From contig JBOEGF010000008.1 of the NCBI GenBank assembly GCA_050633305.1, positions 1 through 64,000 on the forward strand: a stretch of DNA of 64,000 bases, read 5' to 3'. The notes beneath the pieces were generated by a model. That model did not search any database, was not told the origin of the DNA, and saw only the letters and a list, made by a program, of their open reading frames with translations. Positions 43,075 to 61,200 of this stretch are shown here, in pieces. The translations under genes were made by a program, and so were the position numbers. The DNA is from Nannocystales bacterium (GTDB lineage: Bacteria; Myxococcota_A; Polyangia; Nannocystales; Nannocystaceae). Numbering within the stretch: position 1 is the first letter of the stretch; the number at the start of each line of letters is the position of its first letter.

Positions 43075-44211
43075 TCACTCGGAGATGGCGGTCAGGTAGG
43101 CCGCCACGTCGTGACTGGTCGGCTCCAAGGATTTCTTTCCGTCGAGCCGGTGCCGAAGGGTTGAAATCGCCTCGTAGACCGACTTGCGAACGCGGTTGAT
43201 CCCGCCGATCGGGCGGTGCTCGATTCGCGTCTGCCAGGGGTTGAACGACAGGAACTCGCACATCTGGCGCCGCTCGTCGGTGTCGAAAGACTGCTCGGGA
43301 ATCTCGACCCGGGCGACCGTACGGTACGGAGAAATGCTCGTCGGCCAGGGCACGGTGGGGTCTTCCACGGGCATCTGGTTGGGATCGAGCTGGAGCTGGA
43401 CCTGCAGCTCGAAACACGCGCCTTCCGCCGCCATGTCGCGCACGAGTTGCGTTCGCAAGTAGTTCTTCCCCAGCTTCCGGCGCCTACGCCGGTCCGGCTC
43501 ACACGGCATCGCACCGTACTTCACCGCCATCCCGTCCCCAAAAAGGTACGGGGTCATCGAAAAATAATCCGGCTGCCGGGGCGAGACGACTCGCTGCATC
43601 GCGAGTTTTTCCGCCGAGCTCAGCTCGGGGCGGTAGCTCTTCCCCTCGTGAAAGAAGAACCGCAGGGGGTGGCCGATCGTGCTGTCTCGGGTGAACTCGA
43701 CGTAGTCCGCCGCGTTCTTCACGACGAACTGCGGGTAGTTGATGAGGATGATGTCCTGCGAGGTCTCGTCCTCGTGACCCGGAAGCGCCTTCGTGCCGGG
43801 CACGTTCATCATCTTGATCGCCATGCCGCGCCCGTCGGGAATTCGGTCGCGCTGGAACTTGTCCGACGAGTTCGAAAAACGAATCCAGGCGTCGAAGCTC
43901 GCGGGCGTCGAGAACAATCCCACCGCGAGCTCCGAGGGAAGATCGTCCTCGATGGTCACGGACGCGGTCAGGCAACCGTGGGGCTTCACATGCGCGTCAC
44001 GATGCGCGGTCCCGGTTTTTTCGTACCCCTTCTTCACGAACTCGAGCAACAGAGCCTCGCTGGCGGCGATGTCCTTGCCCTCGTTCGGCGGCACCCACTC
44101 CTCCCCCGCCTTCATGTTCACCGGCCACGGGTTGGGCTCGGCGGGGTCGTGTCTGCCCTTGCAACCGGCCACACTCAGCGCGACCGCCATCGCGACGAAG
44201 AAGCGCTTCAT
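43075..44211 (-). CDS. Catalase-related heme protein (mini-catalase), lipoprotein
   Basis: MKRFFVAMAVALSVAGC lipobox. RDAHVKPHG (distal His), IRFSN, DGRGMAIK, LSFNPW and RVRKSVY (proximal Tyr). Confidence 0.88.
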   Translation of the reverse strand: MKRFFVAMAVALSVAGCKGRHDPAEPNPWPVNMKAGEEWVPPNEGKDIAASEALLLEFVKKGYEKTGTAHRDAHVKPHGCLTASVTIEDDLPSELAVGLFSTPASFDAWIRFSNSSDKFQRDRIPDGRGMAIKMMNVPGTKALPGHEDETSQDIILINYPQFVVKNAADYVEFTRDSTIGHPLRFFFHEGKSYRPELSSAEKLAMQRVVSPRQPDYFSMTPYLFGDGMAVKYGAMPCEPDRRRRRKLGKNYLRTQLVRDMAAEGACFELQVQLQLDPNQMPVEDPTVPWPTSISPYRTVARVEIPEQSFDTDERRQMCEFLSFNPWQTRIEHRPIGGINRVRKSVYEAISTLRHRLDGKKSLEPTSHDVAAYLTAISE

Positions 44212-45575
44212 GCGGGTCCCTGCGCAAGCTCTGCGAGCGAGGACAGGCTCGGCACAAAGAAGTACGCGCCGCCCCGTGTTTCAACGAACCTCGGCAGGTC
44301 CCAGCAGAACGAAGGCTTGCTCGCCCCCTGGATGAGCAGCTTCCCGGTGCCATCGTGGTTGCCCACCAGAGGGTCCTTATCGGCCTCGATGGAGAGCGCT
44401 CGCGACGAGATCGACGCGTTCATCCAGTTGCGCTGGACGTACTCGAACTGGTTTTCGATGTCCGTGTTGATCACCCCGAACATCACCCCGCGGTCGGTGT
44501 CATCGGTCGTGCCCTCGGGAAGCCACGGACCATACGGGAGCGCCCGGCGAATGATCCGGTGGCTCCGGACCTGAATCGCGGTCGGCCCCGTAGGATCGTC
44601 TCGCGGGTTGGCCCGGCGGATGTGCGCACCGAAAGGACACGCGTGCCCCTTGTCATCGCCTGTGTAGTGAAAGTCGTTGTTGCGGCTTGGGTCGCCCGCA
44701 AGACCGGGGTCGTCCTTCGTCTTCGCAAGAACCAAGGGCGCTCCACTGCGCCACCGACCGACCATCTTCGCGGCCAAGAGTTCCTCGGACAGACCGCTGA
44801 CCTCAGCGCTGGAAGCCAGGTACTCCCGAAACGACGCCACGTTCTCGGCCAGCTTGCGAAGCGCAAAGTAGCTGCCGTCCTTCTGGAATGCGTGGACACT
44901 TCGGGGCAGGCTTCCGGGCTCCAGCGGATAGCCGAGCACGAACTCGCCTGCCTGGACCGGTGCCCACTTGCCGTCCTTCTCTGGCACCCCCTCCCCTTTC
45001 CAGGGCTTCAGGCCGCTGCCATCGACGAACGGCTGGCCGATGCCATCGACGTAGCCGAAGTGTTCCGTCCCCGCCGGTTTGTCTGGGAGATGCGCAGCGT
45101 CGTCCCGCCCCACACGAACAAGAGCATCTCCGAGCGAATCCTCGACCTGGCGAATGCCCGCTTCGATGCTCGTGCGATCGGCTCCCGCAATCGACACCAA
45201 GATGTCCACATCGGCTTTGCCCAGTCCTCCGGTCCATCGCGCGGGCGCACTGCGCCCATCGTCGCCGAGACGGTCAGCCCGAGCCCCCATCCCGTCGGAG
45301 AACGGCCTCGGCCACTGCACGTCGTCGGGAACCGCGAGCTTCGCCAGCCCACCATGGGTAAAGGCCACGGCCAGTACGAAGGGTCCTTGCCCCGCGTCGA
45401 ACCGAGCACAACTCGTGACCGAAGGAAGAAGCTTGGCCAGCCACGCCTGTGCACCTGCGACATCCGCGATGCGGAGGTACGCGTAGTGCTGATACGGATG
45501 CGCTTCGAGCACGCGGTAGCCGCGAAGCACGATGCTCTGGACGTTGTCCAACGCGATGGAGGTGGTCATGTTCAT
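44208..45575 (-). CDS. Dyp-type peroxidase
   Basis: EHFGYVDGIGQP, AKMVGRWRSG, CPFGAHIRRANPR, HRIIRRALPYG and QFEYVQRNW. Overlaps both neighbours by ATGA. Confidence 0.92.
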   Translation of the reverse strand: MNMTTSIALDNVQSIVLRGYRVLEAHPYQHYAYLRIADVAGAQAWLAKLLPSVTSCARFDAGQGPFVLAVAFTHGGLAKLAVPDDVQWPRPFSDGMGARADRLGDDGRSAPARWTGGLGKADVDILVSIAGADRTSIEAGIRQVEDSLGDALVRVGRDDAAHLPDKPAGTEHFGYVDGIGQPFVDGSGLKPWKGEGVPEKDGKWAPVQAGEFVLGYPLEPGSLPRSVHAFQKDGSYFALRKLAENVASFREYLASSAEVSGLSEELLAAKMVGRWRSGAPLVLAKTKDDPGLAGDPSRNNDFHYTGDDKGHACPFGAHIRRANPRDDPTGPTAIQVRSHRIIRRALPYGPWLPEGTTDDTDRGVMFGVINTDIENQFEYVQRNWMNASISSRALSIEADKDPLVGNHDGTGKLLIQGASKPSFCWDLPRFVETRGGAYFFVPSLSSLAELAQGPA

Positions 45576-46738
45576 GCCAGCAAGCTCTGGTTGCGGTGAA
45601 TGAATCGTTCGACATGCTTCACGAGTCGCTCACCGCCCGAAGGAGCCTCCCTCGTGAACCAGATGAGCTTCTTGCCCAGCGCGAGAGACTTCTGGATCTC
45701 CTTCACCGTCTGATTCGAGTACGACATGTAGAAGTAGTCCCTGGGCAGTCGGCGGTCCTCGAGGAACTTCGCCAGCGCAGGCGCGTCTGCAGCTCCACCT
45801 GCCGGATACCCGATGGCGCCCCCCCACACGAGATCCAGTTTCTTCGGGATGTGCACCGCGAAGTCGCTGATGTACTGCTCCCACTCGCCGTCGTAGACGG
45901 ACTCGAACAGGATCTTCGTGCGCGTGATCTTGGCGAACCTCGCGTAGTGCACCGTCGGGATCTGGCGCAGCGGGTGGATGTTGAGGTGGTCGAGGAACCA
46001 CTCTCCATCCTTGAGCGTCTTGTCCAACCGCTTCACCCAATCCTCGTGGAGGTCGAACACCATCGTGAACGGGTTCTGTCGGTCGGGCGCACTCAGCTGA
46101 GCGGCCGTGAGTTCGTCCGCGGCGTCCTCGCTGTGCGTGTCGATGCGAGCACGGTTGGTCTCCAGGAACGCGGTGTATGACGCCCCGGCTGTATCCGGAT
46201 GACGTTGGACCGCCTTGACGAACTCGAGAAACTCGAGGCGAAGCGGGGTCGCCTCTCGCACAGCTGGTTCACTCGCGCGGTCGAATGCCGAGTACAGCAT
46301 CAGCGTGGGTGACTCGTGCAACTTCAGGAACGTCCGCATCGCGGCGGTGTCCGCGGCACCGCCGTTGGGGTACCCCTCGGTCAGCCGCAACACTGGGTCG
46401 AGCCGCGTTGCGTTCTCGGCCATGAGATTGAGCAAGGCGTTGAGGTCCGCATCGAACACGGCGGAGACCAGCAACGTCGTGTCATCGAGCGGGAGCATGC
46501 GCAGGTAGTGAACTTCCCCGACGGGGTGTTCGAACACATGCTTCTCGAGCTGGGCATGGAGGGCGGCCTTCTGCCCCGACTTGATCGGCAGCAACACCGC
46601 GATCGTCTCCGGGACGACCTTCTCCCCGATGTCCGGGGGAATGACCGGAGGACGCGGTTTGCAAGCCAGCAGGGCAGACGACGCGGCACCCAGACACAGT
46701 GTGCGTCGCCTCAGATGGAGGCGGTCGGAGGCTCCCAC
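45572..46738 (-). CDS. Tat-exported lipoprotein with duplicated domain (DyP-associated)
   Basis: RRRTLCLGAASSALLAC. Internal duplication (VHYLR...FDAD...GYPNGGAADTAAMRTFL / VHYAR...YDGE...GYPAGGAADAPALAKFL). Start inferred. Confidence 0.7.
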   Translation of the reverse strand: MGASDRLHLRRRTLCLGAASSALLACKPRPPVIPPDIGEKVVPETIAVLLPIKSGQKAALHAQLEKHVFEHPVGEVHYLRMLPLDDTTLLVSAVFDADLNALLNLMAENATRLDPVLRLTEGYPNGGAADTAAMRTFLKLHESPTLMLYSAFDRASEPAVREATPLRLEFLEFVKAVQRHPDTAGASYTAFLETNRARIDTHSEDAADELTAAQLSAPDRQNPFTMVFDLHEDWVKRLDKTLKDGEWFLDHLNIHPLRQIPTVHYARFAKITRTKILFESVYDGEWEQYISDFAVHIPKKLDLVWGGAIGYPAGGAADAPALAKFLEDRRLPRDYFYMSYSNQTVKEIQKSLALGKKLIWFTREAPSGGERLVKHVERFIHRNQSLLA

Positions 46739-46866
46739 AGGCGCGCAGCGTATCACCGGCCCGTCGAGAGGTCCCCGACTCCAAAACTGCACTCGGTGTA
46801 TCGAAAATGACCGAGGCATCGCTCTTTGCGTTCCCCCGCACGACCGCGAGACACTGCACACTCGGC

Positions 46867-47619
46867 ATGAAGACGACGCGTAGGACACTTCTCGGCCACG
46901 CCACCGCGGCGCCTCTTGGACTCCTCCTGCCGAGCAGTACCCTCGCCTGCGCAACCGGTTCCGCAGCCAGCACAGCCCCACCGAGGTCGTCCGCCGCCCC
47001 TGCCTCGCCGACGACTCCGGTCGTGCCCACGCCCCTTCCTTTCGATCCCACGCGCTTACCGGGCCTCTCGGAGCGACTCCTGCGCTCGCACCATGAGAAC
47101 AACTACACCGGCGCGGTCAAGAAGCTCAACACGGCCCGGGCCCAGTTGCAGACCCTCCCCGCCGACGCTCCCGGGTTCGTCTTGGGCGGGTTGGCGAAGA
47201 GCGAGTTGGCCTTCAACCACTCCGTCACGCTGCACGAGCTCTACTTCGGGAACTTGACGGGTGGCGGCTCCAAGGGCTCTGCCACCCGCGGGCTCTTGGC
47301 AGATCACTTCGGCGGCGACGCGGCCTGGGAAGCCCGGTTTCGCGCCCTCGGCCAGAGTCTAGGAGGAGGGAGCGGCTGGGCGATCCTAGAGTTCGACCTG
47401 AGGCTGGGAGTCCCACGCATGTACGTCGCGGGCGACCACAGCCAGGGCCTGTCCACAGGCATCCCCCTGCTCGTCCTGGACATGTACGAGCACAGCTACC
47501 ACATGGACTACGGCACAGCAGCCGCCCGCTACATCGACGCTTTCTTCGCGAACGTACACTGGGAAGAAGTCGACCGACGCACCGAACAAGCCCGACAGGT
47601 CGCCACCTTGCTGGGTTGA
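46867..47619 (+). CDS. Fe/Mn superoxide dismutase family protein (ChrC-like), Tat signal
   Basis: MKTTRRTLL signal, with HHENNY, LHELYFGNL, GGGSGW and LDMYEHSYHMDYG. Confidence 0.88.
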   Translation: MKTTRRTLLGHATAAPLGLLLPSSTLACATGSAASTAPPRSSAAPASPTTPVVPTPLPFDPTRLPGLSERLLRSHHENNYTGAVKKLNTARAQLQTLPADAPGFVLGGLAKSELAFNHSVTLHELYFGNLTGGGSKGSATRGLLADHFGGDAAWEARFRALGQSLGGGSGWAILEFDLRLGVPRMYVAGDHSQGLSTGIPLLVLDMYEHSYHMDYGTAAARYIDAFFANVHWEEVDRRTEQARQVATLLG

Positions 47620-48588: not shown

Positions 48589-48655
48589 GGGCGAGCGTTC
48601 TCATCGTCGGAGGAGGCGTGTGTGGTCAAACCCAGCGCCCGGACGACCCCGGCCC

Positions 48656-49402
48656 TCAGGCAGAGGCCGGCATCTGAATGATGCCGAACGTCAAGCCTGC
48701 GGGGTCCTGAGCGATTGCCATGCGGCCCACGCCCTCGGCATCCCAGGCGGGCGCGACGACCTTGCCCCCCTGCTTCTCGATCGACGAAGCGATCGAGTCC
48801 ACCGACTCCACATTCACCCACGCGAGCCACATCGAGGGCGCGTGCTCGTTCATCCCCGTCATCGCGCCAGCCCGGGTGCCCGTCTCCGGCGAGAGCATCA
48901 CGTACTTGCCCATGGGCATGTCCCGAGTCTGCTGCGCGAAGCCAAGACCATCCAAAGCCTTGAGGTCGGCATCGAGGTCCTTGGAGTGCAGGTCGACCCA
49001 ACAGATGTGGCCAAGATCGGCCGGGTTGTCCGTATCGTCCGCGTTCGCCTCGCGGTAGAGGCTGAAATGCGCCCCGCTGGGCATTTTCACCGTCGAGAAA
49101 CGTCCGGGCGGAATGTCGGTCGGGGGTACCAGAACCTCCCCGCCGTGCTTGGTCAGCGTGGCGACCGCGGCGTCGACGTCTTCGACCCGCAGGTAGTTGT
49201 TCCACCACGTCGGCTCTCCCTCTTCGGGTTGACGCAGGTGCGCGAACTGCTTGCCCTCGTGCGCAAGCATGGTCATCGGCCCGTCACCCATGTCGACCTC
49301 TTCGCGCGTCCATCCGAAAACGCCGGTCAGGAATCCAGCCGACTTCGATGCGTCGGGGGTTACGAGGCCGTTCCAGCAGAAGGTGTTGTTGCTCAGTGCC
49401 AT
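48656..49402 (-). CDS. VOC/glyoxalase family protein (two domains)
   Basis: FCWNGL...WNNYLRVEDVD...GG and ICWVDL...WLAWVNVESVD...DPAG. Confidence 0.88.
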   Translation of the reverse strand: MALSNNTFCWNGLVTPDASKSAGFLTGVFGWTREEVDMGDGPMTMLAHEGKQFAHLRQPEEGEPTWWNNYLRVEDVDAAVATLTKHGGEVLVPPTDIPPGRFSTVKMPSGAHFSLYREANADDTDNPADLGHICWVDLHSKDLDADLKALDGLGFAQQTRDMPMGKYVMLSPETGTRAGAMTGMNEHAPSMWLAWVNVESVDSIASSIEKQGGKVVAPAWDAEGVGRMAIAQDPAGLTFGIIQMPASA

Positions 49403-49607
49403 ATCGACCCCAGGACGAACGGGCTCGGGGGGAATCGACAGCGGCCGATTCTTTTTTTTGTAGAAACTCGTCGCGGAGGATGCGGGTTTCACGCTCCGCC
49501 CGAGAATCCCGGCTCTCTCGCTCCATTCACGAACGCATGAGCCTGCCTCGGATCCGGGCGTTTCCGGTCCCGAACGGCGGGGCTACACCCAAAGCGGAGG
49601 TTCACAC

Positions 49608-50306
49608 ATGAAGATCTGCATCATCGGCGCATCCGGGAAACTCGGCCAGTACATGATCCAACACGCGCTCGACCGCGGGGACGAGGTCGTGGGGGTCTGC
49701 CGGACCCAAAGTGTGTCGAAGCTCGACCGGTTTGCCGACCGAATCACCATCGTGCCCGGACAAACCGACGACGCCGAGGTGATCCGCGCGGCGGTGCAGG
49801 GCTGCCAAGGCGTCCTCACCGTGCTGGTGCCCTGGGGCATGAAGGGTTACGCGTCGGGAACCGCACAGGCCGTGCTCGACCATGCGGAGCCCGGGGCTCG
49901 CCTGGTGTTCTCGTGTGGGTGGCACATCACGAAGGACGGCCAGGACGTGTACTCGACCAAGCTCAAGGCCCTGGTGAAAGTGGGCGGATTCTTCGCCCGC
50001 CTCGCACGTGTTGTGGACCTCGATGACCAAGTCCGCGCCTGCGACAGGATTTTCGCGAGCGACGCTCGCTGGACCGTCGTCCGCGGCAGCGACCTCGACG
50101 AAGGTCCTAGCGAGGGCGTTCCGGTGTGGAGTCGCCACGTGGGCGACGACATCCTCGAAAGCAACCGCACCCGACGGACCGACTTCGCGCTCTTCATGGT
50201 CGAGGCGCTGACCAACGACACGCTGATCCGCGAGGCCCCTGCGATCGTCAGTCGAGCCAGCGCTTCTGCACAGCGACACATGAGCGACCGACGCGAGCTC
50301 CGGTGA
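49608..50306 (+). CDS. NAD(P)H-binding protein (BVR-B/NmrA-like)
   Basis: KICIIGASGKLG Rossmann motif, WTVVR and RTDFALFM. Confidence 0.88.
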   Translation: MKICIIGASGKLGQYMIQHALDRGDEVVGVCRTQSVSKLDRFADRITIVPGQTDDAEVIRAAVQGCQGVLTVLVPWGMKGYASGTAQAVLDHAEPGARLVFSCGWHITKDGQDVYSTKLKALVKVGGFFARLARVVDLDDQVRACDRIFASDARWTVVRGSDLDEGPSEGVPVWSRHVGDDILESNRTRRTDFALFMVEALTNDTLIREAPAIVSRASASAQRHMSDRRELR

Positions 50307-50418
50307 CGCCACCCAACGACGACAGCCAACGCAGAAAAACACCTCCAAGAGTCAGGGTGTCCCGGGGGAACAGGGAGCGATTTCAGGCACCCGCGCTCGC
50401 GTCGCGGTGAACAACGTG

Positions 50419-50502
50419 TCCTTTGAAGCCCATTGGCGTGGGCTTCAAAGGAAGCGGGGCAGTCTGCCCCCGAACCAGCTCGCCCGCACCGCAACCGGTT
50501 GC
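50419..50502. promoter_or_regulatory. Cluster of palindromes upstream of the PAS/Roadblock/ODP operon
   Basis: TCCTTTGAAGCCCA-N6-TGGGCTTCAAAGGA (perfect 14-bp arms, 50419-50452), GGGGCAG-T-CTGCCCC (50456-50470) and GCAACCGGTTGC (50491-50502). Confidence 0.55.
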
Positions 50503-50550
50503 AGCATTTGCGCGACCAGTCTTCCGAAACCGGCCTACGGTGCCATTGGA

Positions 50551-51297
50551 GTGAACGAACGGCAAACACTGTTCTTGGCCCCTGTAGGGGCTCCTGCGCC
50601 CAGGAACGCAGCGTCTACGGTCGCGAAATCGCGCCTGGCCGAGGTGCTGATGCAGTTGCCGGTATCTGTCCTTTTGGTGCACCCCTCGGGCCTCGTCGCA
50701 TTCGCGAACGATACCGCGATCCAGGCGACTGGCCGAACACCGCTTGTCGGTACAAGCATCGAATCTGTTCTGGCACCGCTCGAGACCCTACGCTCCGTCG
50801 AGCGAGCGCAGACGAACGTCGGCTACACAGTGGCTGACATCGCCCCTTCCGAGGACGGAAGTCTCTGTGCCGTGGTCGTGCACGACATGCCGCGCGCGCT
50901 CCAGCGAATCGGAGCGTGCGACGGCACATGTGATGGTTCCAACACCGCTGGGATCTGCACGCTGTGCTGGGAGCAAAACCTCCTGAAGGTCGTCGGACAC
51001 AGTGGCCCCAACCCCAAAGAGGAAGCGCTCGCGTTCTGCAACAGCGCGGTCGGGCAAGCGGATGTAGCGACGGATGCCGAGGCTGCTCCTATCCCACCGC
51101 CGCCCACCTGGCACGACGAGCAACGGGACTTCGACCAGCTGGTGAGCGATGGCGCCGAAGCGCTCCTCACCAAGGAGTACCGCGCCGCGCTGGAAGCTTA
51201 TGAGATGGCCGCCCGCCTGCGGCCCGACGCACCCCGAATCCAGATGATCCGGGGAAACCTTGAACGGCTTCGCGAGCTCGTCGCCGCCTCAGACTGA
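50551..51297 (+). CDS. PAS-like domain protein with Cys cluster and C-terminal TPR-like helix pair
   Basis: VLMQLPVSVLLVHPSGLVAFANDTA (PAS start), CDGTC...CTLC, and EYRAALEAYEMAARLRPD (TPR-like). Start inferred. Confidence 0.65.
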   Translation: MNERQTLFLAPVGAPAPRNAASTVAKSRLAEVLMQLPVSVLLVHPSGLVAFANDTAIQATGRTPLVGTSIESVLAPLETLRSVERAQTNVGYTVADIAPSEDGSLCAVVVHDMPRALQRIGACDGTCDGSNTAGICTLCWEQNLLKVVGHSGPNPKEEALAFCNSAVGQADVATDAEAAPIPPPPTWHDEQRDFDQLVSDGAEALLTKEYRAALEAYEMAARLRPDAPRIQMIRGNLERLRELVAASD

Positions 51298-51321
51298 TTC
51301 GAGACAGAAAGCAGGAACGAA

Positions 51322-51687
51322 GTGTCCAGGATCGATAACCTCAACAAAGTACTCCGAGACCTCCAATCTGGCGGTCCCGACGTCGAAGCCAGCGCGTTGA
51401 TCAGTGAAGACGGGCTGATGATCGCCAGCGCCCTGCCCCAACACGTCGAAGAAGCTCGTGTCGCAGGCATGACGGCCACACTGCTGGGGCTAGGAACCCG
51501 CGCGGCAAACGAGCTGGCCCGGGGCGACCTCGAAGAAGTCCTCATCCGTGGCAAGGACGGATACGCGTGCATGATGGCCGCCGGCTCCGGGACGCTGCTG
51601 CTCGCCATGACGACACGCCAGGCGAAGCTCGGACTTCTCTTTCTCGACATGCGCCGCGCCGTCGAAGACATCCGACGCGTTCTGTGA
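51322..51687 (+). CDS. Roadblock/LC7 (MglB-like) domain protein
   Basis: VEASALISEDGLMIASALP...RVAGMTATLLGLG...ELARGDLEEVLIRGKDGY...AKLGLLFLDMRR. Confidence 0.92.
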   Translation: MSRIDNLNKVLRDLQSGGPDVEASALISEDGLMIASALPQHVEEARVAGMTATLLGLGTRAANELARGDLEEVLIRGKDGYACMMAAGSGTLLLAMTTRQAKLGLLFLDMRRAVEDIRRVL

Positions 51688-51694
51688 TCCGGTC

Positions 51695-52285
51695 ATGACA
51701 CCCACAGGCATCGCGGGGGAGAACAGCCCGCTCTGGCTGAGTACCGGCCTCGTCACCCTTGGATTGATGGGCTGGCTCGCGGCCGGTGTCGCAGCGCCCA
51801 CCGAACCCGGCGAGACTCGAGGGGTTCGCAAGGCAGCACCCGCACTAGCGGCTGTTGTGTCCGAGCCCGAGCCCCAGCCCCAGCCTATCGCCAAGCTCGA
51901 CACCCCGACGCCACCGAAGCCGGTCCCCGAACCGTGTGCGCCAGTTGTGGAGTTGCAGTTTGCCTCCGGGTCCAGCGACGTCGCCGACGCGACCGCACTG
52001 GAGACGATCCTCGCGGCAGCGGAACGCTTCAGCGACCGGAAGATCGTGGTCGAGGGATACGCCAGCGCAACCGGCTCGCCCCACCGCAACCTCGAACTGA
52101 GTCACCGCCGCGCCGGCCGAGCCAAGGCCAAGCTGGTCGCCGCAGGCATCGCCAACAAGCGTGTGCGTGTGCAGGCGTTCGGTGAGTACCGCCCCAACCT
52201 CGCAGGCGATGCGGACCAAGACCGAAGGGTCCTGATCAGGCTCGAGGGGCTGCCGTCCTGCCCAACGCCACAAGGAGACGAGTGA
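51695..52285 (+). CDS. OmpA/MotB-like peptidoglycan-binding membrane protein
   Basis: N-terminal TM and Pro linker, then LQFASGSS...VEGYASATGSPHRNLELSHRRA...AFGEYRP...DRRV. Confidence 0.88.
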   Translation: MTPTGIAGENSPLWLSTGLVTLGLMGWLAAGVAAPTEPGETRGVRKAAPALAAVVSEPEPQPQPIAKLDTPTPPKPVPEPCAPVVELQFASGSSDVADATALETILAAAERFSDRKIVVEGYASATGSPHRNLELSHRRAGRAKAKLVAAGIANKRVRVQAFGEYRPNLAGDADQDRRVLIRLEGLPSCPTPQGDE

Positions 52286-52289
52286 AGCC

Positions 52290-53174
52290 ATGATGACGAG
52301 TGTTCTACTGGGGCTCTTCGGAGCCATTGCGACCGGGACCGGCGGCTACCTGCTCGGAGCCCGAGCCGGGCGAGACTCCCGCCGCGCGTTGGAGGGACGC
52401 GTCGACGAGGCACGGGTCCAGACCGAAGCGCTCTCGCAGGAGCTCGCCCAGTCTCGTCTCCAGCTCGCGGCGGCGCAAACCCGCGCCGAGCAGCAAGACA
52501 CCAACAGCCAACAGGTGGCGAGTCAGGTCCGTACGTTGCTCGGGCCCATCGTCGGCGCGCAAGAGACCGCCACGGCAAAGCTTCAGGCCCAGATGCAAGC
52601 GCTCGCCGACCGCGTCGTCGGCGGGGACGGCAGTGTTGAACAGCTCGACGCACTCCGCAGAGAGGTCCAACACACGCTCGCTCCCCTTCTCGAGAAAGAC
52701 CGAAAGAGCGAGGGGCTGCACAAGATGATGCTCGACGTCCTGGGTCCGCTGATGGAAAAGGAGCGACGGGCACACGGGCTCACACTCGTCAGCCCCAACC
52801 GACGAAGCCGGCATGAGCTACCCAAGCTCCTCGACACGCTCGCTCAACGCGGGGGGTTCGCGACGGTTCTCCTCAGCGACGAGATGGGCTTGCCGCTCGC
52901 GGCCAGTGCTGCCGCTCGCGATGCGGACGTCCTCGCAGGGGTGTCCTCCCTCGTGTTCTCCCTGACCGACCGCGTCGTACGCTCGGGAGGACCGGCTCCG
53001 TTGGCGGTCCTCCTGCGTGACGCGTCCAACCAGCGGATTCTGCACCGCATCTTCAGTGTCGACGGCGAACGCTACCTGGTGACCGCAGTGTCCAGGGGCG
53101 GAACGCTCACGACCGACGCACTCGACCCCGCTCTGGCCGCACTCGAGGACATCCTCGGAACCCAGGCCGCCTAG
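52290..53174 (+). CDS. Membrane-anchored coiled-coil protein with C-terminal Roadblock-like domain
   Basis: N-terminal TM, a long heptad region, and FATVLLSDEMGLPLAAS...LAGVSS (Roadblock-like). Confidence 0.75.
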   Translation: MMTSVLLGLFGAIATGTGGYLLGARAGRDSRRALEGRVDEARVQTEALSQELAQSRLQLAAAQTRAEQQDTNSQQVASQVRTLLGPIVGAQETATAKLQAQMQALADRVVGGDGSVEQLDALRREVQHTLAPLLEKDRKSEGLHKMMLDVLGPLMEKERRAHGLTLVSPNRRSRHELPKLLDTLAQRGGFATVLLSDEMGLPLAASAAARDADVLAGVSSLVFSLTDRVVRSGGPAPLAVLLRDASNQRILHRIFSVDGERYLVTAVSRGGTLTTDALDPALAALEDILGTQAA

Positions 53175-53182
53175 GAGACGAA

Positions 53183-53959
53183 ATGGACCCTTCAAAGACC
53201 GCAACCCTCTTCGAATCCGCTGACCACAAGAATCTGTTGTTCCCCGAGTTCGGCGGCGACGGGGACCTGGCCGTGCAGGCCAACCAGTACATGATCGTCC
53301 ACGGCTCCGAAGCCATGATCCTCGACCCGGGGGGGCATAAAGTCTACTCCAAGGTCCTAGGCGAGGTGTTCGCACAGCTGGGCCGGGGGAAGCTCGCTTC
53401 GATAGTGCTCTCCCATCAAGACCCCGACATCGTCGCGGCGATCAACGGCTGGCTCACAACCACCGATGCGGTCGCCTACGCGTCGGCGCTTTGGACTCGC
53501 TTCATCCCCCACTTTGGTCTCGACCACCTGATGGCGGAGCGCCTGCTTCCGGTGCCGGACGAGGGCCAGTGGATCGACGTTGGAGGAGCCCCGATCGCGT
53601 TGCTTCCCGCGCACTTTCTCCACTCCTGCGGCAACCTTCAGGTCTTCGACCCCACCGCCAAGATCCTGTACACCGGCGACCTCGGCGCCTCGCTCGGGCA
53701 GGACTACCGCGAGGTGACCGACTTCGATGCCCACATCCAGTACATGGAGGGCTTCCACCGCCGCTACATGGCTGGAAACGCGGTCATGAAGGCCTGGGCC
53801 AACATGGTACGTCCACTCGACCTCGACATCATCGCTCCGCAGCATGGTGCGGTGTTCAAGGGCAAGGAGATGGTCAGTCGCTTCATCGACTGGTGTGCCG
53901 GCCTCGAGTGCGGCGTGGATGTCATCGGTTCGAACTTCGTCGTGCCCCCGCAGGCCTAG
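53183..53959 (+). CDS. Oxygen-binding di-iron protein (ODP), metallo-beta-lactamase fold
   Basis: VQANQY, LDPGG, SHQDPDI, AHFLHSCGN, KILYTGDLGAS, FHRRYM and IAPQHG. Confidence 0.85.
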   Translation: MDPSKTATLFESADHKNLLFPEFGGDGDLAVQANQYMIVHGSEAMILDPGGHKVYSKVLGEVFAQLGRGKLASIVLSHQDPDIVAAINGWLTTTDAVAYASALWTRFIPHFGLDHLMAERLLPVPDEGQWIDVGGAPIALLPAHFLHSCGNLQVFDPTAKILYTGDLGASLGQDYREVTDFDAHIQYMEGFHRRYMAGNAVMKAWANMVRPLDLDIIAPQHGAVFKGKEMVSRFIDWCAGLECGVDVIGSNFVVPPQA

Positions 53960-53976
53960 CGAAGAGTCGGGGTGCC

Positions 53977-54852
53977 TCAGGGCTGGCCTTCGGTGGCCGC
54001 GAGGATGTCGGTCGCGTGCACGTGTGCCATGTCATCCGCCAGCTCGCGCAGCAGAGCCTCGAAGGTCCCGGCGTCCTGGGGCACGGCGGACTCGCGCCAC
54101 TCTTCCGACAAGGCGAGGCGTCCTCGCAACGCCGCGGAAAACACATCGAGCCAGGTCGGTGCGCTGAACGTGAAGTTGAGTGAGACCGCATCGGTGCTCG
54201 CGTGGGTGGCGTGCCAGATGCCCCGCGGGACGAAGAGCACGGAACCCGGCTCGAGGACGATTTCGGTGCAGTCCTCCGGCAGCCCGGCAGGCATTGGAAG
54301 CCGGGCATAGGACGCGAGTTCGGGGTCGAGCGGCTGGCCGAGCCTGTGGCGGGTCATCGGCGCGCTGACGTTGTGGTTGGGCGCGAGAAACCACCGCTTC
54401 GTGCCGTGCAGCTGCAGCACGAAGTTCACGTTCTGGTCGAAGTGTGTCGCCGTGCCCGTGCCCCCCGGTGTCGCGTAGACCAAGCACCGCTCCTGTGTGA
54501 GCGCGGAGAATCCAAGCTCAGCCCGGATCGCCTCGAGCCAGGGGATGAGTCCCGGCACCTGCAACTGCACCTCGCTGAACAGCAGCGTCCTGCCCTGCGC
54601 GAACAGCTCCTGAGCATCGTCGGCACCCACCATGCTCGAGCTGGCTTCATCCGCCACCTCGGGGTCGAACACTTCGACCGGGTCCGGCCACCCTGCAAGC
54701 AGGCTCTCCAGCGAGCCGAGCAGAGGTCGTGCCCGGAGTTCAGAGTTCGACGACTGCGCACCGTGGACCACGAACGGCTCGCCGCCTCGCATGTGCTCGA
54801 GCAGCTCCTCGGCGGAGTGCGGAAAGATCAACGCTTCAATGCCTGGGCTCAT
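53977..54852 (-). CDS. JmjC/cupin 2-oxoglutarate oxygenase
   Basis: THFDQNVNFVLQLHGTKRW and LEPGSVLFVPRGIWHAT (HxD...H triad). ATG 54852 inferred. Confidence 0.88.
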   Translation of the reverse strand: MSPGIEALIFPHSAEELLEHMRGGEPFVVHGAQSSNSELRARPLLGSLESLLAGWPDPVEVFDPEVADEASSSMVGADDAQELFAQGRTLLFSEVQLQVPGLIPWLEAIRAELGFSALTQERCLVYATPGGTGTATHFDQNVNFVLQLHGTKRWFLAPNHNVSAPMTRHRLGQPLDPELASYARLPMPAGLPEDCTEIVLEPGSVLFVPRGIWHATHASTDAVSLNFTFSAPTWLDVFSAALRGRLALSEEWRESAVPQDAGTFEALLRELADDMAHVHATDILAATEGQP

Positions 54853-55035
54853 GGGCCGCTTCGCCTCGCGGCAACATCCCACAGCGCCGTGGTCAAGAAC
54901 ACCGCCGCGTCGGTCCCGAACCGCGGGAACCGAGCGCGAACAACGCCTCGGGGTACGGCCGCACAGCGTCTTTGTGAACATGAATCGACCGTCCCGACCG
55001 TACACTGCGACCGACGAGCCTGAGACAGGAGACAA

Positions 55036-58000
55036 ATGGCCTTTCGCGACTGGTTAGTTCAAGGGGTACTCATCACCGGAGTTGTCGCATGCGGCAACGA
55101 GGGTGCAGTGTCCCCATCCGATGGTGGCACAAGCACGGGGGGCGAAACAGGAGGCCCTCCGCCAACACCGATCGGCTCGACCGGGGGCGAGACCGGGACG
55201 GTCGACGACTCGGAGGACGGGTCGACGACCGCACCCGACGCTGAAACCACAAGTGGCGCCGAAGACACGTCCCAAGGTGGTTCGACGGATGGAGACAGTA
55301 CCGGCCAGCAGTCCCCAGAATGCGGCAACGGTATCCTCGAGGACGGCGAAGAATGCGACGACGGACCCGGCAACGCCAATACCGCGGCGTGCAAAGAAGA
55401 CTGCACAGTCCAGTCTTGCCCGGATGGCTTCGTCGGCCCGGGGGAGGAATGCGACGACGGAGACGGCACCAACTGGAACGAGTGCACCAACACCTGCACG
55501 CTTCCTTTCTGCGGTGACCAGCTGACCTCAATCGGAGAGGAGTGTGACGACGGCAACACCGACGACGACGATGGATGCTTGTCGACGTGCGTCGACGCCA
55601 GTTGCGGTGACGGTTTCATCCACAGCGGGACCGAGGAGTGCGACGACGGCAACCTGATCGACACCGACAGCTGCCGGTCCGACTGCACCCAAGCGTTCTG
55701 TGGCGACAGCGTGATCTGGGAAGGCGTGGAGACCTGCGACGACGGCAACCTCTCCGACACCGACGCGTGCCCGACATCATGCGTCCCGGCATTCTGTGGC
55801 GACGCCTTCGTACAATCGGGCGTCGAGGCCTGTGATGACGGCAACCTGATCGACACGGACGCGTGCCTGGCGAGCTGCCAGACGGCCACCTGCGGAGACG
55901 GCGTGATCTGGGAGGGCACCGAGACCTGCGACGACATGAACCTCGCGGACGACGATGCCTGCCCATCGACGTGCGCCCCCGCGTTCTGCGGAGACGGGTT
56001 CATCTGGGCGGGGGTGGAGACCTGCGACGACGGGAACATCGACGACACCGACAGCTGCCCTACGTCCTGCAGCCCCGCATTTTGCGGCGACGGCTTCGTG
56101 GAGGCTGCCAACGAGGCCTGTGACGACGCGAATGCGGACAACACCGACGACTGCCTCGACGACTGCACGGTCGCCTCGTGTGGAGATGGGTTCGTTCAAC
56201 TCGGGGTCGAGGAGTGCGACGACGGCGGCATCATCGACGGCGACGGTTGCGAGAGCGACTGCACAATCACGCCAGACCCATGCGGTCCTCCCGGGCAAGT
56301 TCTGTTCGTCGACGACGACGCGACTGGGGCCAACGATGGCTCGTCTTGGGACGACGCGTACACCTCGGTGTTCTTCGCGTTGCTGGCCGCCGAGTCCAAC
56401 GACGAGCTCTGGATCGCCCAAGGGAACTACCACCCGATCGCAGCCAACGCGCCTGTGGCAAGCCTGACGACGTGCGTCGATGTGTACGGCGGCTTCCTCG
56501 GAACCGAGGCCGACGTCGACGACCGCCCCACGCCACTGGCACCGACGGTCTTCGACGGCGACTTCAACCTGGACGATGGTGCTGCGATGCTGGACGACAA
56601 CGCGTTCCATGTCATCGCCGCGACGTCGGTCACCAACGTATTGGTCGACGGTGTGATCGTGACCGGCGGACACGCCACCGGAGCAGGCGAGAGCAGCCGC
56701 GGAGGAGGGGCGATCGTCGCGGACTCCGACATCACCCTCGACAACACGACCTTCGTCGCAAACACCGCGACAGGACGTGGCGCCGGACTCTACGCCGACC
56801 AGTCCACCGTTGACGTCACGTTCTCAACGTTCGACTCGAACACCACCGATGCTGACGGAGGAGGCCTCTGTGGCGACACGGCGTCGGTCGTCGCGGTCGA
56901 CAACAGCACGTTCATCGAGAACAACGCTGCTCGCGGCGGTGGCATTGCGCTGAGTTCCGCGACACTCACGGTGACCGACTCGTTGTTCGAGGACAACACC
57001 GCATCGTCTACGAGTTCCTCAGCGGGAGGCGGCGCGCTCTATGCCGATTCAAGCTCCACGACGGTGGACCTCTCGACCTTCGTCGTGAACACGGCGCGCT
57101 ACGGGGGCGCGGTTCGGACCTCGAATGGGACGCTCGATATCTCCGACTCGGTGTTCGACGGGAACACGGCTTCATCGAACGGCGGAGCAATGTACACCCT
57201 CAGTGCCAGCACGACGAGCGCCACGGTCTTCGTCGACAACTCGTCGGAGAGCTTCGGTGGCGCGGTATTCGTCGCAGACGTGTTTGGAAGCTCGCCCTCG
57301 GCGACCTTCGATGCCTGCCAATTCGAGACAAACATCGCCGGGAGTCAGGGCGGCGCTGCCTACCTCGCGGGCGACCACACAACCCTGTTGGACTCCACGT
57401 TCAACGGAAATACAGCGAACACGGGCGGCGCCATCTACGGTGGGTCGGGCGCCGACTTTTTCATCGCGGACTCGAGCTTCAACGACAACGCCGCATCGAG
57501 CGGTGGCGCTCTGTATACAGCCCTGTCGACGGCCAATGCCGAAGTGCTCCACAGCAACTTCACCGGCAACAGTGCCTCCAGCCGCGGCGGTGCGATCTAC
57601 GACGGGATGAGCTCCACCCGCCGACTCACGGTCTCGGATTGTGAGTTCCGAGACAACACAGCCGTGCTCTCCGGCGGCGCGCTCCGCGTCGTCGCAGGAC
57701 GGTTTACGGTGCGCGACTGCGGGTTCTCGCAGAACACGGCCGGGACCGACGGCGGCGCGATCTCGGCGCGCGGGGAGACAAACTCGTTGATCGCCAGCAC
57801 GTCGTTCTACGCCAACAGTGCTTCCGGGACCGGTGGTGGCATCTTCCTGTCGTCCAACGGGGCCGAGCTTCTTCCGATTCGCAATGTTGCGATCTGGGGC
57901 AACGGCACGGACATGGAGGGCGAAGGCAACGCTGCGATCTCTTACACCTGTAGCGAGGAGTTCCTCAGCGTCGGTGCCGGAAACACCTTGTCACTCGCCG

Positions 58001-58191
58001 ACCCCTTCGTGGTCGGTGACGCCGGAGAACTCTTCCTCGACCAAGCTTCGGCTTGTGTCGACGGCGGAAGCAACGTCGCCGCGAACGCGGACTACGGGGC
58101 CGACGGCACGAACTGGATCCTGCTCACAACGGCACAATCCGGCATGCTCGACGCAACACCCGTTGATATGGGCAGGCACTACCTCCCCTGA
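55036..58191 (+). CDS. Myxococcus Cys-rich repeat (DUF4215) lipoprotein with beta-helix domain
   Basis: LITGVVAC lipobox, ten CGDG...E.CDDGN repeats (~34 aa), FVDDDATGANDGSSWDDAY, and many F..N.A..GGA(I/L) repeats. Confidence 0.9.
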   Translation: MAFRDWLVQGVLITGVVACGNEGAVSPSDGGTSTGGETGGPPPTPIGSTGGETGTVDDSEDGSTTAPDAETTSGAEDTSQGGSTDGDSTGQQSPECGNGILEDGEECDDGPGNANTAACKEDCTVQSCPDGFVGPGEECDDGDGTNWNECTNTCTLPFCGDQLTSIGEECDDGNTDDDDGCLSTCVDASCGDGFIHSGTEECDDGNLIDTDSCRSDCTQAFCGDSVIWEGVETCDDGNLSDTDACPTSCVPAFCGDAFVQSGVEACDDGNLIDTDACLASCQTATCGDGVIWEGTETCDDMNLADDDACPSTCAPAFCGDGFIWAGVETCDDGNIDDTDSCPTSCSPAFCGDGFVEAANEACDDANADNTDDCLDDCTVASCGDGFVQLGVEECDDGGIIDGDGCESDCTITPDPCGPPGQVLFVDDDATGANDGSSWDDAYTSVFFALLAAESNDELWIAQGNYHPIAANAPVASLTTCVDVYGGFLGTEADVDDRPTPLAPTVFDGDFNLDDGAAMLDDNAFHVIAATSVTNVLVDGVIVTGGHATGAGESSRGGGAIVADSDITLDNTTFVANTATGRGAGLYADQSTVDVTFSTFDSNTTDADGGGLCGDTASVVAVDNSTFIENNAARGGGIALSSATLTVTDSLFEDNTASSTSSSAGGGALYADSSSTTVDLSTFVVNTARYGGAVRTSNGTLDISDSVFDGNTASSNGGAMYTLSASTTSATVFVDNSSESFGGAVFVADVFGSSPSATFDACQFETNIAGSQGGAAYLAGDHTTLLDSTFNGNTANTGGAIYGGSGADFFIADSSFNDNAASSGGALYTALSTANAEVLHSNFTGNSASSRGGAIYDGMSSTRRLTVSDCEFRDNTAVLSGGALRVVAGRFTVRDCGFSQNTAGTDGGAISARGETNSLIASTSFYANSASGTGGGIFLSSNGAELLPIRNVAIWGNGTDMEGEGNAAISYTCSEEFLSVGAGNTLSLADPFVVGDAGELFLDQASACVDGGSNVAANADYGADGTNWILLTTAQSGMLDATPVDMGRHYLP

Positions 58192-58270
58192 TCTGTCGCC
58201 CTGCCAAACTGGGTCTCCCAGGCCTACGGGGCGTCTGTAGCCCGCGGCCCGGGAGGCCCCAGCGCCACCG

Positions 58271-61200
58271 CTACGGCGTCAGCGCACCGGCGTCTTCCTC
58301 AGGAGCCATTTCGGCGGGCGCCGCAGGCATCTCCATCAACGGCGAGCGTGTCCCCGCGATGGTGCCGTCCTTGTGCTTCACGGCAAACGCCTTGCCGTCA
58401 AACGTGATCGTGATGCGCGTGTAGGCCACAGGCCGGCTCATCGCCTCGCCCGTCTGTCGTACCGTGAGCTCGGGCAGCCCGGCCGCGGGTGCGGCCAGCG
58501 CGAACAGACCCGTATCACCGGCGATGATCGGGTCCCCCAGATGCCCCGCCGCCGTGGGATCCGCGTGGGTCAGGACGAGGTTTGCCGCCAAGTCCTCCCA
58601 AACCAGCAGCGTCCAGGTGGAAGGACCATCGAAGAGCTGCAGGCGTCGCAACTCTCGGGCGACGCTCTGCGCGGGGATATCGGCTGAATCAGTCGCCTGC
58701 TCGAGGATTCTGGCGAGGTAGGCGACAGCGTGGAGCCGCGCGAAACGCCGCGGATCGTTTGCACCCGGTCGGCCTTCGCCCGCGGCGATCTTCCGAAGCG
58801 TCCGCAAGGCCTCGTCGGTTCGGCCGGTCCCCGCGGCTGCCCGCGCAAGCCGAATGCCCGCCAGGGCATCGTCGGTCTGTAGCTCGACGAGGTCTTCGTA
58901 CTGCCGATACGCACCGTCGTACCAGCCGTGCCGCAGGAAGATGTCTCCGAGCAGTTTGCGGCTCGCCGCGCTGGTTGGGTCGAACTCGACGATCTCGGAG
59001 AACAGTCGCTGCGCTTCGTCGGTTTGTCCGTGCGCAACCATGATCTCCCCCAGCGATTGAGCCAACCCCGGGGTCATCAGCCCCTGCTCGCGCAGGCGAC
59101 GGCCACGCCCGACCGCTTGCTCGAGGCGGCCGCCTGCGACCAGCAACTCCAGCAACCGCAGCTCTCCTGCGGGGTCTCCCGGAGCCCGTGCGAGCGCGGC
59201 ACGGACCACACCGAGCTTATCGTCCAACGTAACCTCCAGGATTACCCGGCGGTCCACATCCGCCCAGTCGACGAGACTCCCAAACATCGCGCTGTCGACG
59301 GATGCGATCAGTGCGGGGTCGACCAAGCGACGCAGCAACGCCCGCGCGACGTAGCGAGCCGCGTCGGACTCGTCGTGGAAGTGGCTCAGCAACAGTTCGA
59401 TGTCGGCTTCACTCGCCGCGCTCGCCTGCAGGAGCCGTAGAAAGGTGCGCTGGTCCTTCCACCCCCGAATCTCGCAGCTTCCCGCCGCCGCTTCGTAGCT
59501 CTGCAGCGACTGCGTCATGGTCACAGCGCTTCCCAGACGTTTGCGCCACAGGATGCGTCGATGGGCGAGTCCCCGAGCCGAAGCGTCGCTGCACGGGAGC
59601 TTCCGGCCGCGCCGGACCGACGAGACGATTCGGCGACGCTCTCGCTGTGCCCTGGGCTGCACTTCGGCGATCTTGTCGATACGGGAGTCCTCCGTCACGC
59701 CTCCCCTCTTGCCACCTCCGGCGCCCCCGCCTCCCATGAGAGGATCGTCGCCGCTGCCAAGGTTGACCTTCTTCTTGCGAGTCTTGGTCGCTGGCGAAGG
59801 CGCCTCGAGCTTCGCCTTCGCCGCAAACTCCCGAGATTCCTCCTCCATCACCTTTCCGTCCGCTGCGCGTTGCGGCTCGGCGTCCACACTCGAAGCATCG
59901 ACACTCGCGACCGCAGCGTCTCCAGGGCTGCTCGCAACGTTCGAGACCTCCTCGTTCTTCGCGCCCTCCACCGCTTTTGCAGCCACGGCCTCGTCAGCGG
60001 ACGATCCGGAATCGCACCCAAACGGTGCACTGAAGAACCCTACAAGGATTCGCTCAGGGAGACTGGCGTCGTCCGCCAATCCTCGCTTGGTCGGGACCCG
60101 GTCGCGCAGGTTTGCGGTCAGCCGAACCCCGCCGATCTGACGCTGCCTTCGGACGATGCCAGCACTTGCGTAAGCCCGCTCGCTCTCCAGGGCCAAGATC
60201 GAAGTGTAAGGACTCATCAGCCCATACTCGAGGCCCAGCGACAACACCTTGCCGCGTACCGCTTCGGGGCCCCGGCTGTCCCCGAGCAGGCGCTCGATGT
60301 ACGCCGCGGCCCACAGTCGGGGCACGACCTGCTCCAGCACGCCCTTCGTTCGCTCGAGCTTGTGCACCTTCTCGAACGGCTCGCCCCCCAGCCGTCCACG
60401 AACTGTGACCTCGTCGGGAAGGTCGTAGTGCGTGCGTGCGAGGAGCACGAGTTCCTGGCCCCGAGAGAGTTTTCCGGTGGTGTTGACGAACACGTCGTCC
60501 AAGCCCTCTCCCAGCTCGACCTCGAGGTCGGTGATCGTGGGGGTCTTGAGAGCACCCGACAGCTCGAGTGCGCGGACGATCGCTTGCTCGGGCGACTGCA
60601 CACGCAGGTGAGTTCCACCGCCGATCCGCGCGAGGGCGTGAAGCAGAGCGTCGTCCACCTCCTGACCCACACCGACGGTGAACAGTCTCGCCCGAGACCC
60701 GGTCATGCTTCGGCGGAGTCGCTCGGCCAACGCATCGCCGGCCCGCTCCCCGCTCGTGGCCATCCCGTCCCCGACATAGACGACCGCGGGTTGATCGAGC
60801 CCGTGCACCCGCTCCAGCGCCTCCTCGAAGATCGCGCCGAGGTCCGTCGCACCGCCGGTCCCGTGCTCCGCAAGCCGCTCTAGAGCCGCCGAAACCGTAT
60901 CGGGGCTAGCCTTGGCAAGCCCCGCCTCGGGGTAGAGCACCTCCGCTCGGACATCCGCGCTGACGACCGCAAACTCGTCCCCTGCACTGAGACTGCGCAA
61001 GAACGCCTCCGCCACCGCAAGCCGGGTTTGATACTCCGCGGGGTCGCCGGCCGCCGACGTATCGACGACCACGACAACTTGCCCTTGCGGGGTCGGGACC
61101 TCGTCGAAGTCGAGTTCGGGGCTGTAACGAACCATCGCGTAGCGAGCTTGGTCGCCTCCGGGCTCGAGCATCGACAGACGCAGCGGTGGACGCTCGGTGC

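Follow-up and report, generated by a model that had tools for sequence, protein, structure and literature searches.

The oxygen-binding di-iron protein (ODP) of Treponema denticola and Thermotoga maritima was reportedly characterised by Muok et al. in 2019. These proteins are known from PMC7319448, PMC7666581 and PMC6978683, and further ODP literature includes PMC7785958. PMC6978683 describes ODP as binding both iron and oxygen, and PMC7319448 notes ODPs in operons with other signalling genes. For Roadblock/MglB proteins, the survey of Wuichet and Sogaard-Andersen (PMC4316618) places PATAN domains near MglA/MglB in the Group 1/5 neighbourhoods. It also gives hundreds of orphan Roadblock/MglB genes without a GTPase partner, none of them characterised at the time. 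The locus described here contains both kinds of protein. It is a five-gene operon (genes A to E) in a stretch of 64,000 nucleotides, called the window, from a Nannocystales bacterium (assembly GCA_050633305.1, contig JBOEGF010000008.1, positions 1 to 64,000 of the forward strand). Its parts are as follows.

50551..51297, + strand: gene A, 248 amino acids, fused PAS-linker-TPR protein as read from alignments
50887..50910, + strand: fusion junction in gene A, placed by alignments to the kinase and regulator of relatives
51322..51687, + strand: gene B, 121 amino acids, soluble Roadblock/LC7 protein (PF03259)
51688..51694, + strand: gap of 7 nt between B and C, where the closest kinase-bearing relatives have a protoglobin gene (180 amino acids)
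51695..52285, + strand: gene C, 196 amino acids, OmpA-like domain protein (PF00691)
52290..53174, + strand: gene D, 294 amino acids, hydrophobic helix, stalk and C-terminal divergent Roadblock, by model and Foldseek
53183..53959, + strand: gene E, 258 amino acids, ODP-family di-iron protein of the metallo-beta-lactamase fold (PF19583)

A recurring cassette of a probable sensor and Roadblocks

The five genes are a real, recurring signalling cassette built from known parts, which probably links an oxygen/iron sensor with a membrane- and wall-anchored pair of Roadblock adaptors. The favoured reading, with a probability of roughly 0.55, is an envelope-fixed sensory scaffold, in which an O2/Fe(II) sensor would sit on wall-fixed Roadblocks and its output would pass through a TPR adaptor. 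All five open reading frames (ORFs) lie on the + strand with spacings of 24, 7, 4 and 8 nt, and their coordinates agree with the initial annotation, which had given five co-oriented genes 4-24 nt apart. The frame of gene A is open from 50407, and the start at 50551 is supported because a homolog begins at the matching residue. The operon has no intact gene for a histidine kinase, a methyl-accepting chemotaxis protein (MCP) or a GTPase. This is as first annotated, with the correction that gene A is itself the remnant of a kinase and regulator fusion. The kinase core (HisKA/HATPase) and the REC receiver domain are absent from the window copy by Pfam and tblastn, and the six MCP matches in the genome all lie away from the operon. 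A promoter and terminator scan of the operon gave no signal above shuffled sequences.

Gene E matches PF19583 at 222.7 bits (cut-off 27.2; E 4.9e-66) and Lactamase_B at 75.3 bits. Its only solved relatives by sequence are the oxygen-binding di-iron proteins 6qrq (E 9e-66) and 6qnm (E 1e-59). It is a stand-alone metallo-beta-lactamase domain that shares the HQDPD, HFLH, GD and PQHG motifs with the solved ODPs and has no flavodoxin domain. The motif SHQDPD, the residues H144, H147 and D166, and the motif PQHG are invariant in 12 of 12 aligned homologs, and the flavorubredoxin model matches E only at E 0.099. An FprA/flavodiiron fragment or a generic hydrolase is excluded by the family score, the two solved relatives and this weak match, and the original assignment of E as a true ODP-family protein stands.

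The gene set recurs far beyond chance, and the co-occurrence of ODP, Roadblock, OmpA and membrane Roadblock is found in many genomes. Because the surveyed genomes are kin and not independent, the counts describe conservation and not independent trials. The survey anchored on D gave 87 loci, of which two with a weak D were dropped; the other 85 fall into 61 clusters at 90% identity, 33 of them with enough flank. Roadblock B is present in 33/33 of these informative loci, OmpA in 30/33, PATAN/DUF4388 in 28/33, and an intact kinase, REC and PATAN in 23/33. All 33 carry ODP and/or protoglobin (ODP 30, protoglobin 7, both 4). The profiles were built from the same loci, and tblastn with the window proteins and Pfam on samples agree with them. 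The survey anchored on B found matches at E<=1e-25 in 43 of 401 genomes of the phylum; 40 regions were fetched, covering 41 of 47 other places. ODP or protoglobin lies in 34 of the 40, and in 27 of 27 where B identity is at least 49%. An ODP with at least 50% identity to E occurs in 39 other genomes. Three of the contigs are too short, and the ODP sits beside a Roadblock in 28 of the 36 informative genomes. The annotated gene order is conserved in part: only two adjacencies are stable, namely OmpA directly before D (62 of 69 loci) and B followed by ODP or protoglobin (79 of 101 B copies, not de-duplicated), and the remaining order varies. The tree neighbours of B are Nannocystaceae and other Myxococcota, and the family extends beyond Myxococcota to Roseiarcus.

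Protoglobin can replace ODP in the cassette. It lies between Roadblock and OmpA in L022-L026, and PF11563 was not found in the genome of the window, which is 92% complete. Protoglobin ligands are not limited to O2. This would suit a reading in which the input is iron status, NO or general redox, or in which ODP and protoglobin are local O2/NO sinks or carriers, and the binding of iron as well as oxygen by ODP points the same way. Such a reading is very unlikely: two unrelated O2-binding folds alternate in one gene slot, both are without a reductase partner in the cassette, and the neighbours are signalling domains.

Several loci vary the arrangement. The whole or part of the cassette is in tandem duplication in L035, L085, L151 and L039. 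In L153, L155 and L152, Roadblock-ODP adjoins a Ser/Thr kinase-like gene and extra Roadblocks, with Pkinase confirmed for L152 only. Large hybrids of HD-GYP, PAS and histidine kinase lie beside Roadblock and ODP at L020:10506-13538 and L100:1367-4636. At L229:5141-6409, an MCP gene lies downstream of a more remote ODP (42% identity), as in the characterised chemoreceptor-coupled class.

The fused gene A

By its alignments, gene A joins, in frame, a PAS domain derived from a histidine kinase and the tail of a REC-PATAN(DUF4388)-TPR response regulator. The operon of the nearest relatives begins with genes for a PAS-HisKA-HATPase kinase of ~360 amino acids and a REC-DUF4388-TPR regulator, and a protoglobin follows B. 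The kinase H-box and the REC Asp/Lys of these relatives are conserved. Residues ~28-113 of gene A align to the PAS domain of the kinase (32-36%), and residues ~117-248 comprise the last PATAN/DUF4388 helix, the linker and the C-terminal three-helix TPR of the regulator (30-57%; L022, L023 and L026). HisKA, HATPase, REC and most of PATAN are gone at the junction, which amounts to 1244-1250 bp in three relatives (~1.25 kb), and PAS has a further in-frame loss of about 12 residues. The Pfam matches to PAS and TPR are both sub-threshold. The first label of a PAS gene is right for the PAS-derived N-terminal part and misses the fused TPR tail, which makes this no ordinary PAS gene. No cognate kinase or regulator was found by tblastn elsewhere in the 92% complete genome. 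The two-component kinase has been cut out of the window copy and the fused remnant kept, and the lack of a kinase is a derived state of this lineage.

An assembly artefact at the junction is unlikely, since a contig from a separate assembly runs across it and a diverged homolog shares it. The contig comes from run X1 and covers 50730-51104 with one difference; the run may have a link to the source sample, so it is not independent biological support. The homolog, P0320, belongs to another organism and is 60% identical to gene A at full length, gap-free, with the same junction and no stop. A Roadblock that shares 112 of 120 residues with B is recorded on a contig as long as that of P0320, probably the same one. 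Between gene A and P0320, family-conserved columns are identical in 40 of 50 cases and the others in 47 of 81 (p 0.013), and the clustering of conservation was matched in only 0-1 of 400 neutral simulations. A test on the lack of stop codons in the fusion gave P 0.01-0.06 and is biased, as only open frames can be found. The fusion is read as old and under selection, a maintained variant, because the gap-free homolog keeps the junction and its conservation is clustered on family-conserved columns. A recent pseudogene was considered for gene A and was dropped after the homolog and the conservation tests. The GC content at third codon positions (0.73) is inside the range of the genome.

Cysteines C127, C136 and C139 near the junction are common to both fused copies, and the CxxC pair is absent from intact regulators; with two sequences only, this is a lead. 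The Atlas feature match of gene A (0.78) is also a lead at most. A repeat search found no informative repeats at the fusion junction or at the ends of the variable block that holds the operon.

The deletion, the PAS loss and the missing protoglobin would also suit a cassette that works in relatives, with the window copy as a slowly decaying relic whose remainder is drifting. The TPR of gene A has changed faster than that of one of three relatives tested (unique changes 10 vs 0, p 0.002; 9 vs 2 and 8 vs 4 for the other two), and B and E each have one nominally significant acceleration. The model of gene A, made from a two-row alignment, has a mean pLDDT (predicted confidence) of 47.9 and is confident only in the TPR helices. 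The operon lies in a 9.7-kb block (48590-58314) that is absent at the syntenic site of the same-genus genome G002. D was not found in the six same-genus genomes searched, nor ODP in five, so the cassette is dispensable or accessory. The faster sequence changes and the absences within the genus also count against the scaffold, and the faster TPR and the poor model against selection on the fusion. In contrast, the second organism keeps the fusion, with the identity and the pattern of conservation given above. The similarity of C, D and E to relatives is about that among the relatives themselves, and kinase-less four-gene forms occur naturally (L036, L041, L043, L059, L068 and L152). A decaying relic is considered improbable.

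Predicted Roadblock pair, probable wall anchor and GTPase slot

Both Roadblock assignments of the initial annotation hold. B matches Robl_LC7 (PF03259) at E 1.3e-15; its best solved relative is 7f8m (E 8e-29), and MglB chains reach only E 0.17-0.2. B is the most conserved member of the cassette, being 88-89% identical to close relatives. D has no Pfam match above the cut-off. Its architecture comprises a hydrophobic helix at residues 5-23, a helical or coiled-coil stalk, and a divergent Roadblock at residues ~172-290. In the AlphaFold2 model (mean pLDDT 80.5), a long helical stalk is followed by a C-terminal domain resembling MglB and other Roadblocks, with a Foldseek match to MglB 6hjm (E 1e-5, template-modelling score by target 0.76). 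A search of 50%-identity representatives gave 304 relatives of D at E<=0.001, and by hhalign D is a homolog of the second Roadblock in GTPase-linked loci (probability 89, E 2e-6). A plasmid search with a short D homolog gave no match.

Modelling supports a Roadblock heterodimer of B and D, a pairing of the soluble and the membrane Roadblock that had been suggested as possible. The complex of B with D(165-294) scores 0.63 and the best of three controls 0.00, the controls being non-Roadblock proteins; because Roadblock dimers have been solved many times, the score may reflect likeness to them, which counts against the pairing. Among solved complexes, 116 of 157 attain the mark set for the score, as do 2 of 215 mismatched pairs. 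The runs agree in at least 82% of contacts, and the partner pLDDT is at least 77. The interface is strand-to-strand and helix-to-helix, the pairing typical of Roadblock dimers.

The OmpA domain annotated in C is borne out by PF00691 (E 2.2e-14; 54 bits vs a cut-off of 27.2). C has a hydrophobic segment at residues 15-33 (hydropathy peak 1.58), a Pro-rich linker and the OmpA-like domain, and it is probably an inner-membrane protein with a periplasmic peptidoglycan-binding domain. In OmpA-like domains, a conserved Asp and a conserved Arg bind the stem peptide, and the Asp has a role in wall binding. C keeps the Arg. Its motif is GYAS, the commoner form of the family being GHAD. The Asp is replaced by Ser in the window copy and in 9 of 58 family rows, and is present in 30, with 19 rows unmatched by the pattern.

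No MglA-like GTPase lies in cis, as was first annotated. None is present in the window within four genes, the distance from mglA to a Roadblock gene that serves as the coupling rule in PMC4316618. None is present in the 27 close-Roadblock regions or in the 33 D-anchored loci (0/33), and the clade with the B of the window (57 rows, support 98/93) has no GTPase in cis. An MglA blastp search over 128 regions gave matches in 8, all of them among the 13 whose B homologs are most distant (38-48% identity). A second Roadblock homologous to the domain of D is present in 11 of these 13 regions, and several have a DUF4388-TPR protein and a sensor. ODP is joined to an MglA-like GTPase in L166, L218 and L222. 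The Thermus thermophilus plasmid NZ_AP025604.1 has DUF4388, a GTP-binding protein, Roadblock and protoglobin in a row. The cassette is read as a GTPase-less offshoot of the known GTPase-PATAN-Roadblock neighbourhood, because MglA-like GTPases, PATAN and a second Roadblock accompany the more distant Roadblocks. The GTPase-linked form is presumably the older one; the B tree does not show the order of events because it is midpoint-rooted and has a very long MglB branch and 121 columns.

In relatives, the GTPase slot holds a ParA-type or ExeA-type ATPase, or nothing. A ParA/MinD-type ATPase is present in eight regions (L020, L076, L138, L142, L144, L147, L148 and L157), and the OmpA anchor in 0/8 of them, as would be expected if one sensor can be positioned in either of two ways. 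At L054:1139-2626, L061:2801-4324 and L065:2-871, the soluble Roadblock is fused C-terminally to an AAA_22 ATPase, which we take from its motifs to be ExeA-like, and ODP, OmpA and membrane Roadblock follow. Operons with an MglA-like GTPase, DUF4388-TPR and two Roadblocks are found in L161, L164, L166, L167, L171 and L218. A helix-hairpin-helix protein occurs in the GTPase operons of L161, L166, L167 and L218, and L166 also has an HU-like protein and ODP.

A PF03029 search found no GTPases in the genome and is insensitive, because tblastn found two MglA-like genes. One is the MglA of a canonical mglBA pair (C15), with its own MglB adjoining. The other (G000:C11:208319-208891) is 42% identical to MglA and lies downstream of a dnaK-like gene. 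A possible partner in trans therefore exists. A separate REC-DUF4388 gene is paired with a divergent Roadblock gene at G000:C18:514544-516672. With two such GTPases encoded, B:D could act in trans as an O2-gated, wall-anchored GTPase-activating protein or scaffold for MglA or the second MglA-like GTPase, and so change the reversal frequency. The MglB-like fold of D and the GTPase-bearing distant loci, with their PATAN-TPR, D-like Roadblock and ODP-GTPase pairs, are consistent with this. However, the D-anchored loci and close-Roadblock regions are without a GTPase, MglA is already paired with an MglB, B is only remotely related to MglB (E 0.17, very long branch), and a family that reaches Roseiarcus has ParA- or ExeA-type NTPases in the slot. 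Action in trans on an MglA-like GTPase, as the initial annotation had proposed, is unlikely and not favoured.

At the MglA-binding helix, PMC3199381 describes MglB mutants at the small residues A64/G68 of M. xanthus, and B has Gly56 and Arg60 at the aligned places. Arg60 was considered as a sign that B is unable to bind MglA and was set aside as not discriminating, since all 12 sister Roadblocks compared, of which most are GTPase-linked, also have Arg at this position.

In the preferred envelope-fixed scaffold, ODP would bind Fe(II)/O2 at its di-iron site, as characterised ODPs do, and would dock on the soluble Roadblock B, as gene adjacency and the protoglobin swap suggest. B would pair with the cytoplasmic Roadblock domain of D, a step that the model supports. 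D would in turn pair with C, whose periplasmic OmpA-like domain would hold the complex on the cell wall. The output would run through the protein-protein adaptor PATAN-TPR, whose domains are present. In most relatives, the PAS histidine kinase would phosphorylate the REC domain of the adaptor and so gate the output. In this lineage, the phosphorelay is deleted and PAS is joined to the TPR tail, and the fused protein is probably an unphosphorylatable adaptor. The likeliest target, and the weakest step, would be a spatially organised machine for surface motility or polarity, by analogy with MglB and PATAN regulators. No dedicated small GTPase would be needed, and the scaffold would descend from GTPase-PATAN-Roadblock-Roadblock-sensor operons.

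Beyond the signs of decay, three observations weigh against the scaffold. A close ODP is without a nearby Roadblock in 8 of the 36 informative genomes, and 4 of these 8 have a Roadblock-protoglobin cassette at another site. Not every locus has the anchor, as OmpA and a D-type gene are present in 12 of the 27 close-Roadblock regions. Wall anchoring in this clade may be weak because the OmpA motif has Ser for the family Asp.

A broader proposal is tentative, with the odds leaning against it. Orphan Roadblock heterodimers could form a signalling hub of general use in prokaryotes, the bacterial equivalent of Ragulator, with interchangeable gas sensors (ODP, protoglobin) on one side and outputs (MglA-like GTPase, ParA, ExeA-type ATPase, kinase/REC-PATAN) on the other, positioned by a wall anchor or by ParA. 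This lineage would work without NTPase or phosphorelay, through a fused PAS-TPR adaptor that may have gained a cysteine redox or metal site at the junction.

The variable block also contains a JmjC/cupin gene (53977-55035, - strand), convergent to the operon, and a gene (55036-58191, + strand) for a 1051-residue Cys-rich protein with DUF4215 and Chlamydia_PMP repeats and 96-nt repeats. Upstream, the ORFs at 43075-47619 presumably encode, by motif, a catalase-related protein, a Dyp-type peroxidase and a Fe/Mn superoxide dismutase, and a CobW ORF follows. The catalase-related and Dyp-type ORFs are not part of the cassette because they are kept in same-genus genomes without it.

Comparison with known systems

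No literature joining Roadblock/MglB with ODP, DUF4388, protoglobin or PATAN was found in a search whose coverage excludes subscription papers and supplements, and the cassette is apparently unstudied so far. It offers a large group of the orphan Roadblock/MglB genes a testable job, the relay of O2/Fe signals from ODP or protoglobin at a fixed envelope site. If true, ODP signalling would have a route without chemoreceptors, and gliding bacteria a candidate O2 input. The window copy is a natural experiment in which the phosphorelay is removed and the scaffold and fused adaptor are kept. For bench work, this reduced copy is a poorer model than an intact relative or the operon on the Thermus plasmid.

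The ODPs of T. denticola and T. maritima (6qrq/6qwo and 6qnm/6r9n) belong to the same Pfam family as E, with a full-length match and the same metal-site motifs. The characterised ODPs are coupled to a soluble chemoreceptor, and an MCP gene beside ODP would be expected in such a system. In contrast, the cassette operon has no MCP, the fixed neighbour is a Roadblock, an OmpA anchor is added, and protoglobin can substitute for ODP.

The MglA/MglB(/MglC) polarity module of Myxococcus xanthus and Thermus thermophilus has the Roadblock fold and the predicted side-by-side dimer in common with the cassette. The cassette differs in having no GTPase in cis and one membrane-tethered Roadblock, B is distant from MglB, and the genome has a separate mglBA. 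The Group 1/5 MglA-MglB neighbourhoods and the Thermus plasmid operon share PATAN beside Roadblock, and Roadblock followed by an O2-binding protein. For the Group 1/5 neighbourhoods, no sensor is named in the parts of PMC4316618 that were covered. In place of the GTPase, the cassette has a PAS kinase/REC, ParA, an ExeA-type ATPase or nothing, and it adds the OmpA anchor and the membrane Roadblock.

The PatA-type (PATAN-REC) regulators of cyanobacteria interact with the type IV pilus motor, according to the title of bioRxiv 10.1101/2021.06.11.447907. The intact cassette regulator likewise joins REC to PF14332 (PatA_N) and has no DNA-binding domain. Its order is REC-PATAN-TPR, however, with a classical PAS kinase in place of a chemotaxis-like system, and in the window PATAN is almost wholly deleted.

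Eukaryotic Ragulator is a works-like analogy only, being a membrane-held Roadblock heterodimer whose chains are among the fold matches of D. There is no sequence-level membership (LAMTOR5 at E 0.033, below the cut-off), and the cassette differs in its transmembrane stalk tether and in having no Rag GTPase.

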